This document shows positions 45,405 through 51,646 of a stretch of DNA of 64,000 nucleotides, piece after piece. Both the position numbers and the translations under genes were made by a program. The stretch covers positions 1-64,000 of the forward strand of contig CAVWIH010000026.1 in the NCBI GenBank assembly GCA_963755025.1, given 5' to 3'. The notes beneath the pieces were generated by a model. The model saw only the letters and a program-made list of their open reading frames with translations, did not search any database and was not told the DNA's origin. Every line of letters starts with the position of its first letter. Position 1 is the first letter of the stretch. Source of the stretch: an uncultured Actinomycetes bacterium. Lineage in GTDB: Bacteria > Actinomycetota > Thermoleophilia > UBA2241.

Positions 45405-48400
45405 GTGTCTGGCATGTCCCGCTTGCTCTACCGACTCGGCGCCTGGTGCGCGCGGCGCAAGGTCGTCGTCTTTCTGGCTTGGCTGGCGGTCATCGCCCTG
45501 GTGGCGGCCGGCGTGGTCGCCTTTGGGCTGCGCACCAACAACGACGTCACTCTGCCGGGCACCGGCGCCCAGCACGCCTCCGACATCCTGCGCCAGAGCT
45601 TTCCGCCCCAGCAGAACAGCCAGAGCCCGGTCGTCTTTCACGCAACGCAGGGCAAGGTCACCGACGCCGGCAACAAGCGCGCCATCGAGAGCTCGCTCGC
45701 CGCCATCGCGCACGCCGGCCACGTGGCCACTGTCACGAGCCCCTTCTCGCCGCGCGCCGGCAAGCCGCAGGTGAGCGCCGACGGCACCACGGCCGTCGCC
45801 GAGGTGCTGCTCGACGTCAACGGCTTTCAGCTCACCAAGCAGGTCGCCGCCAGCGTGATGGCCGGCGCCGACCCGGCGCGCAAGGCCGGCCTGCAGGTCG
45901 AGGCCGGCGGGTCGCTGGGCACCGTGATCTCGCAGACCAAGCCGCGCGGCAGCGAGCTGATCGGTACCGTGGCGGCGGTCATCATCCTGGCCTTCACCTT
46001 CGGCTCGCTGGTCGCCGCCGGGCTGCCGCTGGTGACCGCCCTGATCGGGCTGGGGATAGGGCTGGGCCTCGTCGGCCTGCTCGGCCACCTCGTCGCCATT
46101 CCCGACTCGGGGCCCACCGTGGCGGCCATGATCGGCCTGGGCGTGGGCATCGACTACGCGCTCTTCATCGTCTTTCGCCACCGCGACGAGCTCGCCGCCG
46201 GCACGCCGGTCGCCGAGTCGATCGCGCGCACCATGGCGACCTCGGGCAGCGCCGTGGTGTTCGCCGGCTGCACGGTCATCATCGCGCTGCTCGCCTTGCT
46301 CGTGTCGCGCGTGCCGCTGCTGGGGGCGATGGGCTACGCCGCCGGCATCGCCGTGCTGGTGGCGGTGCTGGCCGCGATCACGCTGCTGCCCGCCCTGCTC
46401 TCGCTGCTCGGCCACCGCATCGACGGGCTGCGGCTCGGCGGGCGCCGGGCCGCTGTGCGGCAGGGCGCCGGGGCGGCGACGGTCGCCGCCGGGGCGGCGG
46501 GGGAGGCCGATGCGCAGACCGCCGCTACGGCGGCGGGGGAGACTGGTGCGCAGCCTGCCGCGCGTTCGGGCGCCGACAACGTCTGGGGGCGCTGGGCGGC
46601 GCTCGTCACCCGGCACCCGTGGCTGGCCCTCGGCGCCGCCCTGCTCGTCATGGTGCCGCTGGCGCTGCCCACGCTCACCCTCAAGCTCGGTCAAGAGGAC
46701 GTGGGCGTGACGCCCACCTCGACCACGCAGCGCCGCGCCTTCGACCTGGTCTCCTCGGCCCTCGGCCCGGGCGCCAACGGCCCGCTGGCGATCGCCTCGC
46801 GGTTCGACCCGGTGGCCACGCCCAGCACCGAGTACACCACTGACAACAACAAGGCGCAGGCCCTCAAGCGCCAGATCGACGCCGGCCGGCGCAGCCTGAG
46901 CGCGAAGAGCGCGGCGCTCAAGAAAGAGCACGCCGCGCTGACCGCCGACCAGGCCGCGCTGCAGGCGCAGTCGGCGCAGCTGCACGCCGGCCAGAGCGCG
47001 CTGCAGTCACAGGCGGCCGCCTTGCAGGCACAGAGATCGCAGTTACTCGGCGAGGAGGCGGCTCTGACGGCAAGAAAGGATCGCCTCGCCGCCGAGTCGC
47101 AGGCCCTGGCCGCCAGGGGCAAGGCGCTGGCCGCGCAGATCGCCGCCGTGCAGCAGCAGATCGCCGCCTCGAGCGACCCGGCGCAGGTAGCGCAGCTCGA
47201 GGCGCAGCTCGCCGCGCTCGCGGCGCAGGCCCAATCGGTCCAGGCGCAGAGCGCGGCGCTGCAGAAGCAGGCGGCGCCGCTGGTCGCCCAGGGCAAGCGG
47301 CTCGCCGCTCAGGGCGACGCGCTCGCTGCGCAGGGCGATACGCTCAGCGCGCAGGGCGCGGCGCTGCAGGCCAAGGCGAACGACCTCGCGGCTCAGGGCG
47401 CGGCGCTGAAGCGCCGCGCCGCCAGCCTCACGAGCCGGGCCGACCAGCTCCGCCAGGAGCAGCGCCGTCTCACCGCCCAGGGCAAGCAGGCCGAGGCGCT
47501 CAAGAAGAAGCTCACGGCTATGCTCACCAAGGCGGGCGGCGAGGCGCGCGCCACCGACCCGCGCGTGGTGGCGCTGCAGGACGCGCTGGCGCGCACGGCC
47601 GGCGTGGCCTCGGTCTCCCCGCCGCGCGTCGACAAGGGCGGCGACGCCGTCATGCTCGGCGTCACCGCCACGACGCGCCCGGCCGACCCCAAGACGGTCG
47701 CCCTCGTGCGGCGCCTGCGCGACACTGTGATCCCGGCGGCCACCAAGGGCCAGGGCGTGACCGCCTACGTGGGCGGCAAGACGGCGGCCTTCGTCGACCT
47801 GGCGACGCTCATCGGCGCGCGCCTGCCGCTCGTGATCGCCACCGTGCTGGCGCTGAGCTTTCTCGTGCTGCTGCTCGCCTTTCGCTCGCTGCTCGTGCCG
47901 CTCAAGGCGATCCTCTGCAACCTGCTCGCGGTCGCCGCGGCCTTCGGCATCATCACGGCCGTCTTTCAGTGGGGCTGGGGGCTGAGCCTGGTCGGCCTGG
48001 CCAACCCCTACGGCACCGTGCCGATCGTGAGCTACGTGCCGCTGCTCATGTTCGCCGTGCTGTTCGGCATGTCGACCGACTACGAGGTCTTTCTCATCAG
48101 CCAGATCTTTCAGTTCCACGCGGCGGGGCAGGGGCCGCACGAGGCGGTGCGCTCCGGCGTGGGCACGAGCGCCCGGGTGATCACCGCCGCGGCCGCGATC
48201 ATGGTGACGGTCTTCGCCAGCTTCGTCTTGAACGGCGACCCGGTGATCAAGGAGTTCGGCGTGGGCCTGTCGATCGCCATCCTGCTCGACGCCACCATCG
48301 TGCGCCTGGTCATCGTGCCGGCCACCATGGTGCTGCTCGGCGAGTGGAACTGGTACCTGCCGCGCTGGCTGCAGTGGCTGCCGCGCATCGACCTGCCGCA

Positions 48401-48461
48401 AGAGGCGCCGGCCGGCGGCGCCGGCGAGGCGCCGGCCGGCGAAGCCGCGCCGGCGGGGTGA
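45405..48461 (+). CDS. MMPL (RND) family transporter with long Gln/Ala heptad coiled-coil insertion
   Basis: FGSLVAAGLPL, GLGVGIDYALF, GSAVVFAG, FRSLLVPLKA, FGMSTDYEVF, DATIVR and WNWYLP. Confidence 0.92.
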   Translation: MSGMSRLLYRLGAWCARRKVVVFLAWLAVIALVAAGVVAFGLRTNNDVTLPGTGAQHASDILRQSFPPQQNSQSPVVFHATQGKVTDAGNKRAIESSLAAIAHAGHVATVTSPFSPRAGKPQVSADGTTAVAEVLLDVNGFQLTKQVAASVMAGADPARKAGLQVEAGGSLGTVISQTKPRGSELIGTVAAVIILAFTFGSLVAAGLPLVTALIGLGIGLGLVGLLGHLVAIPDSGPTVAAMIGLGVGIDYALFIVFRHRDELAAGTPVAESIARTMATSGSAVVFAGCTVIIALLALLVSRVPLLGAMGYAAGIAVLVAVLAAITLLPALLSLLGHRIDGLRLGGRRAAVRQGAGAATVAAGAAGEADAQTAATAAGETGAQPAARSGADNVWGRWAALVTRHPWLALGAALLVMVPLALPTLTLKLGQEDVGVTPTSTTQRRAFDLVSSALGPGANGPLAIASRFDPVATPSTEYTTDNNKAQALKRQIDAGRRSLSAKSAALKKEHAALTADQAALQAQSAQLHAGQSALQSQAAALQAQRSQLLGEEAALTARKDRLAAESQALAARGKALAAQIAAVQQQIAASSDPAQVAQLEAQLAALAAQAQSVQAQSAALQKQAAPLVAQGKRLAAQGDALAAQGDTLSAQGAALQAKANDLAAQGAALKRRAASLTSRADQLRQEQRRLTAQGKQAEALKKKLTAMLTKAGGEARATDPRVVALQDALARTAGVASVSPPRVDKGGDAVMLGVTATTRPADPKTVALVRRLRDTVIPAATKGQGVTAYVGGKTAAFVDLATLIGARLPLVIATVLALSFLVLLLAFRSLLVPLKAILCNLLAVAAAFGIITAVFQWGWGLSLVGLANPYGTVPIVSYVPLLMFAVLFGMSTDYEVFLISQIFQFHAAGQGPHEAVRSGVGTSARVITAAAAIMVTVFASFVLNGDPVIKEFGVGLSIAILLDATIVRLVIVPATMVLLGEWNWYLPRWLQWLPRIDLPQEAPAGGAGEAPAGEAAPAG

Positions 48462-48464
48462 GCG

Positions 48465-48497
48465 CCCCACCCCGCGTAGGCAGCGTCCGCACACTTG
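48465..48497 (+). promoter_or_regulatory. Truncated copy of the upstream module
   Basis: CCCCACCCCGCGTAGGCA-N6-GCACACTTG, lacking the first box and the sigma-28 elements. Confidence 0.5.
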
Positions 48498-48499
48498 CT

Positions 48500-48759
48500 G
48501 GCGGTCCCTGAGCGCGGAGTCCGGGGGCAAAGGCGGCGGCGATCTCATCACCATCACTGGGGCGGGCTTTACGGGCGCCACCGAGGTCGACGTTGGCGCG
48601 GGCAACCCGGCCGGCGATGTGAGCGTCGACTCCGATTCGCAGATCACCTGCACCGTCCCCGCCTGGGACCCGAGCGGCACCGAGCTTCCGTACGTGACGG
48701 TGACGGTCCCGGCCGGCACGAGCGGGGGCGCTCGACGGCGTCACCTACCACTACCTGAG
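48500..48759 (+). pseudogene. Remnant C-terminal IPT/TIG domain of a third surface-protein paralog
   Basis: GGGDLITITGAGFTGATEVDVGAGNPA..QITCTVPAW..VTVTVPAGTS matches the last domain of both paralogs; no start or signal peptide. Confidence 0.65.
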
Positions 48760-48877
48760 GCGCTGACCGGCGGCGGTGAGCGGCCGGAGCGCGCGAAGCG
48801 TGACGCGCGCGCGGAGCGCTCTCGCGCCGCCCGATCGGTCGCAGGCGACGCCGGCAGCGCGGACCAGGCGCCCCCGC

Positions 48878-49049
48878 TGGGTACTGCGCCCCAGCCCTGC
48901 TAGGCACCCTCGGCACACTTGCTCTGGGGCCGTTAACTCCGGCCTGGCGGGGGTCGATAGCTTCAAGTAGACCCCGGCAAGGGGACGGATCGGCCGCTTG
49001 GCAGACCCGCGCGGTTCGAAGCCGGGAGCTAAGCGGCAGGAGGCAGATC
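48878..49049 (+). promoter_or_regulatory. Conserved upstream module copy 3
   Basis: TGGGTA 48878 and TAGGCA 48901; GCACACTTG; TTAA(48933)-N16-GTCGATAG(48953); ACCCCGGC leader; AGGAGG RBS. Confidence 0.6.
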
Positions 49050-49410
49050 GTGGGCGAGCAAGACGTGGGGCGGGCGGGCCGGCACACGGTACCGGCAGCG
49101 CCGCGGCTCACTCGTTTGGGCGCTCGCGAGGGCGCGTCGTTGGCACGGTCGGGTTCGCGCCGGCCGTCGTCGTCGCCCTTCGGCTTTCATGTAGAGGCCC
49201 CGGCGTTGCCGGGCGCCGGTGAGGTCGTGGCGTGGCTGCCGGGAACCGACGAGCTCGCGCCGTCGCTGTTCGGCGCCGCGGAGCTCGAGCCGGCTTCGCC
49301 GGGCGACCCGAAGACGCGCCCTGTCGCGTATAGCGTCGCTGTTCACCGCGGGCCTGCTCGGTGTCGTCGTGGCGCTCCTGTTCGTGCTCGCCGCGGCCGC
49401 GCCGCGATGA
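49050..49410 (+). CDS. Hypothetical protein with probable C-terminal membrane anchor (assumes indel near 49330)
   Basis: GTG with AGGAGG RBS; shifted frame ends SLFTAGLLGVVVALLFVLAAAAPR*. Confidence 0.4.
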
Positions 49411-49429
49411 CCGTGTCGTTACAGCAGAA

Positions 49430-49479
49430 CGTCGCCGAAACGACGCCCGCGGTGGTACCCGCGGGCGTCGTCGGCGACG
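49430..49479. terminator. Long hairpin between convergent transcripts
   Basis: ACGACGCCCGCGG-TGGTAC-CCGCGGGCGTCGT extended by CGTCGCCG/CGGCGACG. Confidence 0.65.
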
Positions 49480-49550
49480 CCTGCTTGTGCGCCCGTCTGG
49501 CGGGCGGCTACGTCAGCGCGATCGAGCGCGCACGACTTAGCGGGAGTCGG

Positions 49551-49643
49551 TCAGTCCCACTTCCACCACGCGCCGCTGGCGACGGCCAGGGCGACGACGA
49601 GCGCCAGGCCGATCACGACTCTGCTGTACATGAACCTTTTCAT
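49551..49643 (-). CDS. 30-aa peptide MKRFMYSRVVIGLALVVALAVASGAWWKWD
   Basis: Purine-rich RBS GAGAGGGA, ATG to TGA; same architecture as neighbouring peptide; absent from ORF track. Confidence 0.7.
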   Translation of the reverse strand: MKRFMYSRVVIGLALVVALAVASGAWWKWD

Positions 49644-49697
49644 GTTCCCTCTCTCTCGTTCACAGTTCCGCTGTGCGCCTTGGGCTGCAGCCGTGGT

Positions 49698-49793
49698 TCA
49701 GCACCACTTCTTGGCCGCGCCACTCGCCAGGGCGATCGACGCGATCAGCGCCACCATCCCGAGCCTCGGGTACTTGCCGTACAAGACTTTCAT
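49698..49793 (-). CDS. 31-aa peptide MKVLYGKYPRLGMVALIASIALASGAAKKWC
   Basis: GGGAGG RBS 5 nt before ATG; shares ASGAxxKWx ending with the downstream peptide. Confidence 0.72.
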   Translation of the reverse strand: MKVLYGKYPRLGMVALIASIALASGAAKKWC

Positions 49794-49884
49794 CTCAACC
49801 TCCCTTCGGTGACCCTTCCTGCTTGACCCTGTCACCACGCGCCGGGTCTGCGCGCCGAGCATCGACTGGTCCCACCGCTTCTCT

Positions 49885-49912
49885 ATATCGGCATCGCCTC
49901 TGTCGGACTTCA
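49885..49912 (-). promoter_or_regulatory. sigma-28-type promoter for the peptide pair
   Basis: Minus strand TGAA-N16-GCCGATAT about 90 nt upstream of the first ATG. Confidence 0.6.
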
Positions 49913-50161
49913 CTTTTGAGGCTGGCGGCGTGAGCGCAGAAACTGCCTGCAAAACGCGGGAATCAGCGAAACGCGATACTAACGTGGCAACACGTACGCC
50001 GTTGGGGAGGGGTCGCGTGGGGTGGCCGGCGGCGCCGCGAGCAGCGCGCCGTGGCGTGTCCCCCAACGAGCCGCCGACGAGCGCATCCGAGCCTGCGGCG
50101 GTATGATGCCCGACACGGATGGCGCGCCCGGCGCCCCACGATCTCAGTGAAAGGCGGCCCG

Positions 50162-50560
50162 ATGAAACCCGAGAACCTCGGCGAGTACCGCGGCCACCGC
50201 GTGACGCTGGACTGGCGCGAGGGCGGCATCGAAGAGCTGCGCATCGCCTGGACCGACTGGCTGCTCTCCATCGACGAGCAGACCTTTTACCTGGGACAGG
50301 ACACGCGCTTCGTCGAAGACGTCCTCGACTGCGACTTCGCCGACTTCGTGGCGGCGGCCCACAGGCGCGCCGACCTGATCGTGCCGGTGGGCTCGCCGGC
50401 CGGCACCGACTACGACCACGAGCTGCTCAAGGCGACCCTGGCCGCCGGCGTGCTCGACGCGCTCGAGGCGCTCTACCGCGAGCGCGGCGAGGAGTTCCTC
50501 GAGGTCGTGGGCGAGCTCGACCCCTGGGCGCTCACGGCGAACGCCAACTACGACTCGTAG
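50162..50560 (+). CDS. Acidic hypothetical protein
   Basis: Host-like codon usage; TATGAT -10 at 50102; no family recognised. Confidence 0.6.
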   Translation: MKPENLGEYRGHRVTLDWREGGIEELRIAWTDWLLSIDEQTFYLGQDTRFVEDVLDCDFADFVAAAHRRADLIVPVGSPAGTDYDHELLKATLAAGVLDALEALYRERGEEFLEVVGELDPWALTANANYDS

Positions 50561-50722
50561 GGGCGCCCATAGGGCCCACGGGCCGCAGGAGCGGCAAGCC
50601 TCAGCTTTCGCTAGAGGGTTAGCTCTGCGGTCTCGGGCTGTGCCGGCCGGCTCACGGTCTCGATTCGCGGCAAGCTCAGACACAGAGGTCGTGCCGAGCC
50701 CCGGCGGGGCCCCGATCGCCTG

Positions 50723-51073
50723 CTACTTCAGCCCGAGCGACACCTTGAGCGCCTGATCGACCGCCGCCATCGTGGGGCCGGACAGCGTTGCGAGCCTGTC
50801 TTCGAGCCAGGCGCTGGGCACTGTGCTGATGGTCTCGCAGTGGACGACGGCGGCCTGGCCGGGCTCGGCGGCCGCCAGCCTGACGAGGAAGGGGTAGTCG
50901 GGCCGCGGAGCGGTGGAGACGAGCGCCACGATGGTGCTCGGCGACGAACGGTTGCCGACGTCGTTCTGCACGATGAGCGCCGGACGGCGCCCCACGGGCG
51001 CCGGGAATGTGACCCAATAGACGTCGCCGCGCGCGGGCGCTGCCCGAGGCGCGGCCGGGGCGGCCGGAGTCAC
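50723..51073 (-). CDS. PemK/MazF-family toxin
   Basis: RGDVYWV, RRPALIVQNDVGN, CETISTV and VDQALKVSLGL. Confidence 0.88.
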   Translation of the reverse strand: MTPAAPAAPRAAPARGDVYWVTFPAPVGRRPALIVQNDVGNRSSPSTIVALVSTAPRPDYPFLVRLAAAEPGQAAVVHCETISTVPSAWLEDRLATLSGPTMAAVDQALKVSLGLK

Positions 51074-51155
51074 TCGAGGCCCACTCGCACGGGCGCGCCG
51101 TACGGGCGCGTGTCTGGTACGACGGGCGGGGCTTTGACCGGCGGAGCGGCCGGCA

Positions 51156-51398
51156 TCATTCGGGGAACGCTCGGACGGCGACGTTCGCGAGCGCCGCGAC
51201 GACGTCGAGCTGGCTGGCTCCGACGTCGGCGTAGCCCTGCGCCAGGCGTTCGGCCAGCAGATGGTCGCGCAACAGATCGAGAGCTTCGATCACGATCTGC
51301 GTTTTGCTTTCGTGGCGATCGGCGGCGAGCTGCGTGAGGAAGGCGTTGGCGGTGTCGGGCAGACGCACCTGCACCGGCGTGGTAGCGACACGAGACAT
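51156..51398 (-). CDS. Ribbon-helix-helix antitoxin
   Basis: PVQVRLP..LTQLAA..SKTQIVIEAL RHH pattern and LAQGY motif; upstream of toxin; GGAG RBS. Confidence 0.75.
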   Translation of the reverse strand: MSRVATTPVQVRLPDTANAFLTQLAADRHESKTQIVIEALDLLRDHLLAERLAQGYADVGASQLDVVAALANVAVRAFPE

Positions 51399-51646
51399 GA
51401 GCCGACTCCATTCTTCATGACCACAAGTATCAGTCGGCCGCGTGCCGCCTGCAAGCATTGTGCACCGCACGTCTGCATGTCTTCAACCATGCAAAGATGC
51501 TTGCGAGAAGCGGCGCGCGACGGGCGGGAGCGCTTGCACCAGGCCCCGTCACGACCGGCAGAACGGCCCCGACGCCCGATCGACGGCTCGGGCGAGCCCT
51601 TCTGTTAGATTCTGATAGAATCCGACACTCCCGATTTGGAGCGGTC

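Follow-up and report, generated by a model that had tools for sequence, protein, structure and literature searches.

We describe a tandem pair of micro-open reading frames (micro-ORFs), A and B, on the minus strand of a 64,000-nucleotide stretch of DNA (the window; contig CAVWIH010000026.1) from an uncultured Actinomycetes bacterium, and on the evidence of sequence comparison both are real genes. Their products are peptides of about 30 amino acids (aa) with a basic N-terminus, a hydrophobic core and the motif SGAxxKW close to the C-terminus. Relatives of the pair recur in an uncultured Thermoleophilia-like lineage, many of them directly upstream of genes for enzymes of cyclic di-GMP (c-di-GMP) turnover and preceded by promoters of the type recognised by the sigma factor WhiG. 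The reading that we favour, at slightly below an even chance, is that A and B are single-pass micro-proteins of a WhiG/c-di-GMP regulon, which would act in the membrane on a module made of an enzyme with a MASE9 sensor domain and the membrane protein DUF5317.

The layout of the pair could be read directly from the sequence, as an earlier model-made reading of this DNA (the first-pass annotation) had proposed. ORF A (49698-49793(-), ATG at 49793) encodes the 31-aa peptide MKVLYGKYPRLGMVALIASIALASGAAKKWC, composed of an N-terminal GKYPRL motif, a hydrophobic core and the C-terminal end ASGAAKKWC. ORF B (49551-49643(-), ATG at 49643) encodes the 30-aa peptide MKRFMYSRVVIGLALVVALAVASGAWWKWD, which starts with MKRFMYSR and runs through a hydrophobic core to ASGAWWKWD. 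Each ATG is placed 5-6 bases 3' of a purine-rich ribosome-binding site: GGGAGG for A (49799-49804(-)), within the 5' leader, and AGGGA for B (49646-49650(-)), within the spacer that separates the two ORFs (49644-49697(-)). The N-terminal end of both peptides carries a charge of +3, and the hydrophobic stretch between the Lys/Arg residues and the Lys-Trp spans 16-19 residues, the length of a single helix in a protein of fewer than 50 residues.

A six-frame scan of the host genome (3.37 Mb, 70.7% G+C, 84% complete) for G[AGS]xxKW(x0-2)-stop gave four matches, namely A, B and a second tandem pair at C17:110499-110937; since just two tandem pairs were found genome-wide, the paired motif exceeds chance. 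When the two loci were aligned, the promoter, a leader block and both ORFs proved common to them, and the flanks differed. The window copy is a solo paralogue and the C17 copy is linked to an enzyme gene. With B as the query, all 11 other genomes of the genus matched, with 1-3 copies each and an A-type match just 5', and the pair recurs in further genera of the lineage. Two subtypes are recurrent, A being marked by G(K/R)YPR(L/V) and B by (S/N)(R/K) ahead of hydrophobic residues, and the tandem pairs are always ordered A then B. The first-pass annotation had suggested a search of this kind, to be followed by a tally of neighbouring genes; the search uncovered homologous micro-ORFs in the host genome, the genus, the class and metagenomic clusters.

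The pattern of substitution is that of coding sequence. In an alignment of 22 A and B peptides (A2), the initial methionine and the residues S, G, A, K and W are invariant, with SGAxxKW present in 22/22. Pairwise Nei-Gojobori ratios of nonsynonymous to synonymous substitution (dN/dS) were 0.34 for A (22 distinct sequences, including a small number of peptides of the same length from other genera, whose register is slightly off and which inflate dN) and 0.23 for B (20 distinct sequences, part of them from a DNA-pattern search that fixes some motif codons). Variation was greatest at third codon positions, and ORF lengths were constant across loci where the spacers differed in sequence and length. 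These comparisons bear out the coding-type conservation and the selection on the motif that had been anticipated from the two window peptides, and support the view that selection on A and B centres on SGAxxKW.

Outside the genus the family is patchily distributed. The A2 profile matched 39 of 401 genomes of the class at E up to 0.01, a tally that includes G349, a weak match inside a 342-aa frame that was left unused; the matches comprise 20 of the 79 genomes sampled from the family of the window and 12 of the 76 from another, here called the second family. Inspection of 21 further loci from this search revealed a motif micro-ORF in 17 and none in four (L075, L078, L079 and L080), so part of the class tally consists of false positives. 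In the second family the peptide is single rather than paired (e.g. ...LVLASGAGWKWH). Elsewhere in the phylum, three of 400 genomes matched weakly (G419 and G624 among them were left unused). A profile search of 1.84 billion representative proteins returned 51 clusters at E up to 0.001, all of 21-84 aa. The match lies at the C-terminal end in 49 of these and in the other two a longer called frame continues past it; none of the 51 carries the motif as a domain of a larger protein. The residues that follow KW differ, vanish or extend among relatives (KW, KWAR, KWDW, KWGC, KWNH).

No Pfam or NCBIfam family reached its cut-off for the A and B peptides at E up to 10, and Rfam returned nothing for window positions 48500-51500 at E up to 1; a match to a known family such as the type I toxins, which had been named as a finding that would overturn the proposal, was therefore not encountered in these searches. 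The description of the pair as unannotated holds insofar as no family is assigned, yet it is inexact for the public records, in which 27 B-type proteins appear as 'hypothetical protein' with no Pfam domain. The ESM Atlas likewise returned only nameless 'hypothetical protein' clusters, every score being below 0.9. One typical A/B pair (L052, CAVXNH010000096.1) is filed under 'uncultured Alphaproteobacteria'; as the other related records are labelled Actinomycetota, Actinomycetes or Thermoleophilia, this record is probably mislabelled or from a mixed bin.

The promoter provides the first link to c-di-GMP. In Actinomycetota the sigma-28-type factor WhiG is restrained by the anti-sigma factor RsiG armed with c-di-GMP, according to the available text of PMC8325347 and PMC12871210, and the latter gives T(A/C)AA-N16-GCCGATAA as the WhiG2 consensus. 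Upstream of A, a -35 element TGAA (49909-49912(-)), which aligns with the TAAA of the C17 paralogue and with T[ACT]AA in 19/29 tandem pairs, is followed 16 bases further 3' by the -10 element GCCGATAT (49885-49892(-)), 92 bases before A. The window promoter therefore departs from the consensus at one -35 position and at the final -10 base; that of the C17 paralogue reads TAAA-N16-GCCGATAC. In a non-redundant set of 41 units, of which 29 are tandem pairs and 12 are singles, the pattern T[N]AA-N15-17-[GC]C[CT]GAT[AG] was found upstream of 19/29 tandem pairs, 63-103 bases before A, and of 1/12 singles. It precedes 15 of 16 enzyme-linked pairs versus four of 13 solo pairs, the window pair being one of the four. 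The pattern also fits the flagellar consensus used in PMC8325347, as far as its available text goes. Together with the presence of a WhiG gene, these data support the assignment of a sigma-28-type promoter made in the first pass, and a WhiG-type identity for it.

The rest of the host genome is consistent with a regulon of this kind. Sites matching TNAA-N15-17-GCCGATA occur 20 times genome-wide, against 1-3 times in six first-order Markov simulations, and the TAAA version five times against 0-1. Other sites precede a prepilin-type type IV pilin, a GH123-like protein and a 78-aa ORF, as well as a MASE9-HD-GYP gene (C3) and an MFS gene that diverges from it; the third gene for an enzyme of this type, located on C13, carries the near-match TCCA-N16-GCCGATAC. 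WhiG is encoded at C7:4111-4920 (NF004935, 365 bits, cut-off 343; TIGR02479, 271 bits, cut-off 189.6), as is a small RsiG-like protein (PF22802, 59 bits, cut-off 27). The latter went without a match in a strict genome scan for the RsiG motif E-x3-S-x2-R-x3-Q-x3-D and emerged from a relaxed scan as a variant with H in place of Q, which Pfam then confirmed. Flagellin was not detected, the genome being 84% complete. WhiG exceeded its cut-off in 343 of 401 genomes of the class sample and is so nearly universal that its presence does not separate carriers of the peptides from other genomes. The Rubrobacter WhiG regulon comprises pili and c-di-GMP enzymes (PMC8325347, available text), and the predicted WhiG sites at the pilin and MASE9-HD-GYP genes match that composition. 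Within the window, a further sigma-28-like site at ~19513(+), TCAAG-N-GTGCCGATA, lies 193 nucleotides (nt) before a 448-aa ORF and may mark another WhiG target.

The second link is synteny. For 20 loci of 9-16 kb, genes were called by a G+C-at-third-position heuristic and 164 flanking proteins were scanned with Pfam; the neighbours of the pairs included MASE9-HD-GYP, DUF5317, YaaH-type, PMT and MFS genes. Downstream of 23 of the 41 units, tblastn detected a same-strand homologue of HD-GYP or DUF5317, and one further unit (L071) has a GGDEF gene there, so that 24/41 are directly upstream of c-di-GMP enzyme genes, for the most part those of MASE9-HD-GYP phosphodiesterases. A DUF5317 homologue stands next to the enzyme gene in 13/13 enzyme-linked long loci. 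Downstream of the C17 copy, after 59 bases, comes a 436-aa MASE9-HD-GYP gene (G000:C17:109132-110439; MASE9 PF20972, 42 bits; HD-GYP PF13487, 120 bits) and then DUF5317, and the same order was observed in G005, G010, G011, G022, G312 and G006. In G024 and G013, DUF5317 precedes the enzyme, which is of type MASE9-HD-GYP-GAF-GGDEF. The second family has a MASE9-HD-GYP enzyme in G279 and, in G226, a GGDEF-HD-GYP enzyme with a membrane part at its N-terminus that resembles MASE9 (hhalign 95.8%, E 6.7e-9). Pfam confirmed MASE9 and HD_5 in G000:C17, G005, G010, G011, G022, G024, G312, G006 and G279, and in 9/9 aligned HD-GYP homologues the catalytic motifs (HDLGK, HHE, GYP) show no variation.

The association extends to a distant family of the phylum, where a 32-aa ORF ending in ...LAAALGAPNKWI is found 136 bases ahead of the gene for a membrane histidine kinase (G590) with a weakly MASE9-like N-terminal part (hhalign 79.8%, E 1.4e-5). 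The sensors downstream of the peptides thus differ in their output, which may be HD-GYP, HD-GYP-GAF-GGDEF, GGDEF-HD-GYP or histidine kinase. The suggestion in the first-pass annotation that similar micro-peptides occur beside membrane HD-GYP, GGDEF or kinase genes in related taxa is borne out by these 24 units and the one kinase. Its remark that no receptor is adjacent applies to the window copy and fails for the C17 copy, which stands before a MASE9-HD-GYP gene. Some loci are rearranged: L098 (G009:C37:95110-96308) carries a local duplication with two tandem pairs ~960 nt apart, and L090 (G022:C2:273110-279897) two inverted pairs ~6.3 kb apart, only one of which adjoins the HD-GYP gene. Two modules are decaying: in L093 (G058:C1) the HD-GYP gene is reduced to a 63-aa match and the B-type ORF has an internal TAG, with DUF5317 intact, and in L094 (G288:C8) the HD-GYP gene is in three pieces.

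The window unit is bounded downstream by a long G+C-rich hairpin (~49422-49488(-)), the strong hairpin that had been noted at first sight. The segment 49400-49552 (153 nt) has a minimum free energy of -92.8 kcal/mol (z = -5.2), and 0/200 shuffled sequences folded as well. It has no U-tract, and a simple scan for U-tract terminators called none on the minus strand at this position; the hairpin probably serves as a terminator or stabilises the 3' end. Four metatranscriptome runs, each from a different study, supplied contigs that lie on 49465-49923. Two whole contigs (343 and 382 nt, from two studies) lie inside the unit and end at 49864 and 49866, which is 10-14 nt inside the start inferred from the -10 element, although such contigs cannot map ends. 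No RNA-library contig fell on 49250-49464 or 49924-50100, which is not evidence of transcript ends. For the C17 paralogue, a 337-nt contig extends from B to 208 nt past its stop, inside the HD-GYP ORF. The contigs are consistent, as weak evidence, with expression of the unit and with co-transcription at C17.

These observations can be assembled into a model. A and B would be paralogous single-pass membrane micro-proteins, with a putative topology that is probably N-in/C-out, a predicted helix of ~16-19 residues ending in a patch of small residues (A-x-A-S-G-A) toward the outer leaflet, and a Lys-Trp pair serving as a likely anchor at the outer interface of the membrane. The ancestral unit would have consisted of a WhiG promoter, A, B, a MASE9-HD-GYP phosphodiesterase and DUF5317; the window copy, equipped with a WhiG-type promoter and a 3' hairpin of its own, would be a solo paralogue that has dispersed and supplies the same peptides in trans. 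The micro-proteins may bind the MASE9 sensor domain, DUF5317 or both within the membrane and so tune c-di-GMP hydrolysis. A feedback loop would follow, in which low c-di-GMP frees WhiG, the peptides and the phosphodiesterase are made, and c-di-GMP changes in turn.

The first-pass annotation had offered two functions, a pheromone precursor or an intramembrane ligand of a membrane sensor, and we prefer the second because of the synteny of the pair with MASE9-type enzymes. In the available part of its defining paper (10.1101/2021.11.05.467447), the ligand of MASE9 (PF20972) is argued to bind within the membrane, the outer loops being short and poorly conserved, and the proposed intramembrane action of the peptides agrees with that prediction. 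A complex prediction for MASE9 residues 1-235 (alignment A4) with the peptide alignment A2, made without controls, returned a score of 0.01 and a mark of 0.32, to which we give no weight either way.

Several observations weigh against the favoured reading. The window pair and 12 other tandem pairs adjoin no sensor gene, 59 of the 79 sampled genomes in the window's family have no peptide match, and two of the three MASE9-HD-GYP genes in the host genome are without micro-ORFs; the last two points indicate that the peptides are not obligatory subunits of the enzyme. One of these genes (G000:C13:88688-90100(-), L106) is a paralogue of the C17 gene with 76% identity, and its leader begins in a similar way. 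With small residues at -3 and -1, the n-h-c layout suits a cleavable signal peptide no less than a helix-packing patch. RNA libraries can hold DNA, and a contig that spans two genes is no proof of a single transcript. Finally, a 23-aa variant of A, termed A', has lost most of the hydrophobic core and SGA and kept AAKKW(G/S), which makes the C-terminal tail, not the helix, seem the selected part. It occurs at L011:1639-1710(-) and L031:1641-1712(-) as MEFPAGKRATLTRFALVAAKKWG or MKLLTGTWSTFARLALVAAKKWS, is paired with a normal B, and is preceded by a GGCAGCCTGATAG-like sequence, not a WhiG-type promoter. In L016, too, a start resembling that of A' can be seen ahead of B, and the variant is probably the result of one inherited deletion event, seen in three genomes of the genus.

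The same features invite the other reading of the first pass, that A and B are signal-peptide-like pheromone precursors. They would be inserted via Sec/YidC, either signal peptidase I or a protease within the membrane would cleave them behind A-S-G-A, and the freed 4-6-mer, xxKW(x), would be extracellular and sensed by the MASE9-type enzymes. An n-region of charge +3, an h-region 13-15 residues long and a c-region, ASGA, whose -3 and -1 positions are small together form a residue pattern compatible with a Sec-type signal peptide. The Lys-Trp behind the putative cut is invariant, A' retains AAKKW despite its lost core, and the peptides are linked to membrane sensors; the precursors of Bacillus Phr and streptococcal SHP/XIP are of comparably small size. 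However, the residue after KW is variable, absent or extended, and the Gly at -2 is invariant, which to our knowledge is not a requirement of signal peptidase I. Sec export would be impossible for A', and the pair has no conserved neighbour that encodes an exporter, a peptidase or an oligopeptide importer. No Rap, Rgg or RRNPP-type receptor was present among the 164 flanking proteins scanned. The MASE9 architecture described above (10.1101/2021.11.05.467447, available part), with its short outer loops and ligand binding predicted within the membrane, also speaks against an extracellular ligand. We consider a pheromone function less likely than the favoured reading, yet a serious rival to it.

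The position of the pair ahead of an enzyme gene raises the further question of whether the ORFs act in cis, as leader peptides (upstream ORFs) that control the HD-GYP operon, with the solo copies as leftovers of duplication. In the genus, 58-64 nt separate the end of B from the HD-GYP start; Trp codons are frequent in B, and a structured, conserved 5' leader is present. In the window this leader is predicted to span 49794-49878(-), its start being inferred from the -10 element, with the block GGTGGGACCAG near its 5' end. Leaders of the genus (e.g. L034:1727-1830(-)) share CACTGGGACCAG right after the -10 element and GGTCGATCTGGTGGGGATC before the ribosome-binding site, and between these blocks runs a variable stretch that appears hairpin-like in single sequences. 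The consensus fold of these leaders was weak: RNAalifold on 14 leaders recovered 6 consensus pairs only, at -0.47 kcal/mol. Control in cis is at odds with the amino-acid conservation along the entire peptide (dN/dS 0.23-0.34), with the occurrence of two paralogous peptides rather than one, and with the finding of the same peptides ahead of sensors of different output in distant lineages. Solo units of the family, with a promoter and a 3' hairpin of their own, moreover persist, and downstream of the pair the window has no remnant of an HD-GYP gene. A leader function therefore appears improbable.

The surroundings of the window pair suggest one more function. The pair is flanked by an MMPL transporter gene, a 169-aa ORF of no known kind and a MazF-type pair. 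The last comprises a PemK/MazF-type toxin gene (50723-51073(-); PF02452, 70 bits), ~1.1 kb from A and B, and just upstream of it a 104-aa ORF (51156-51470(-)) without a Pfam match, which is likely the antitoxin. The MMPL transporter (45405-48461(+), 1018 aa) has a long Ala/Gln-rich, coiled-coil-like insert between its membrane halves. From there to ORF B (48462-49550, ~1.1 kb) no gene was called with confidence; there are short low-scoring frames only, among them one of 94 aa (48619-48903(+)) and one of 63 aa with a hydrophobic tail (49219-49410(+)). The idea that the window copy carries the decayed start of an HD-GYP gene was rejected, as tblastn of the C17 HD-GYP and DUF5317 proteins against 48300-50100 found no remnant.

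With a MazF-type gene nearby, A and B could be imagined as type I toxin-like or membrane-perturbing peptides, made under WhiG and restrained by RNA structure or an antisense RNA. Their size, the hydrophobic helix with a charged or aromatic end, the several copies per genome and the structured leader ahead of the ribosome-binding site would all suit such peptides. Against this stand the searches reported above, with no match in Pfam or NCBIfam at E up to 10 and none in Rfam, and a promoter scan on both strands of the window locus that found no sigma-70-type promoter, antisense or otherwise. The synteny with c-di-GMP enzymes is kept across families, which would be unexpected of toxin-antitoxin loci, and the order is always A then B. 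We judge this explanation very improbable. The probability that lies beyond the four readings is left to other functions.

Small membrane proteins that regulate sensors are known, with MgrB and SafA acting with PhoQ and MzrA with EnvZ. If the favoured reading is right, in which A and B act in the membrane on the MASE9/DUF5317 module, they would resemble these regulators in having one transmembrane helix and tens of residues, in being co-regulated with the pathway, and in their proposed action on the membrane or periplasmic part of a sensor; linkage and co-regulation are seen in the 24/41 units next to an enzyme gene and in the WhiG-type promoter of 15/16 linked pairs. Unlike MgrB, SafA and MzrA, to which they have no sequence relation, A and B are two tandem paralogues encoded upstream of the sensor in the same unit, and the linked sensors are MASE9-type c-di-GMP enzymes rather than the kinases PhoQ and EnvZ. 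With Phr, SHP and ComS/XIP they share a very short length, a basic N-terminal end, a hydrophobic core and, at the C-terminus, a conserved tail containing Trp. They differ from these in having no adjacent cytoplasmic receptor of the Rap, Rgg or ComR type and no conserved exporter or Opp genes, and in coming from another phylum.

The system also resembles the WhiG/RsiG regulons of Actinomycetota in its promoter consensus, in encoding WhiG and a small RsiG-like protein, and in the predicted pilin and HD-GYP targets. It differs from those regulons, as set out in the available text of PMC8325347 and PMC12871210, in having micro-ORFs as targets, although small hypothetical proteins may figure in the supplementary target tables of PMC12871210; Thermoleophilia has no occurrences in the main text of that paper. 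MASE9 is the candidate partner encoded directly downstream of the linked copies and not the peptides' own family, and the accessible part of 10.1101/2021.11.05.467447 mentions no accessory peptide for it. The titles and abstracts that we searched contained no description of micro-proteins linked to MASE9, HD-GYP or DUF5317. The nearest known kind is that of small transmembrane regulators of membrane sensors, and the peptide family itself is without a detectable relative.

Membrane domains of the MASE type stand at the head of many c-di-GMP enzymes. The defining paper of MASE9 names no ligand in its available part (10.1101/2021.11.05.467447), and we tentatively put forward as possible that the intramembrane ligands missing for this domain, or its accessory subunits, are A and B, which would be tied into a loop with RsiG and WhiG and dosed by the solo copies. 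Were this so, c-di-GMP enzymes, and in one lineage a histidine kinase, would receive a dedicated micro-protein input. The concentration of c-di-GMP, acting via RsiG and WhiG, would set the level of the peptides, and the peptides in turn would set c-di-GMP hydrolysis. Solo copies such as that in the window would allow the cell to adjust peptide dosage separately from that of the enzyme. The micro-ORFs would also represent a class of target that predictions of WhiG regulons, built on the start codons of target genes, may miss, and they would place small-protein control of second-messenger turnover in a deep, uncultured lineage of the actinobacteria.

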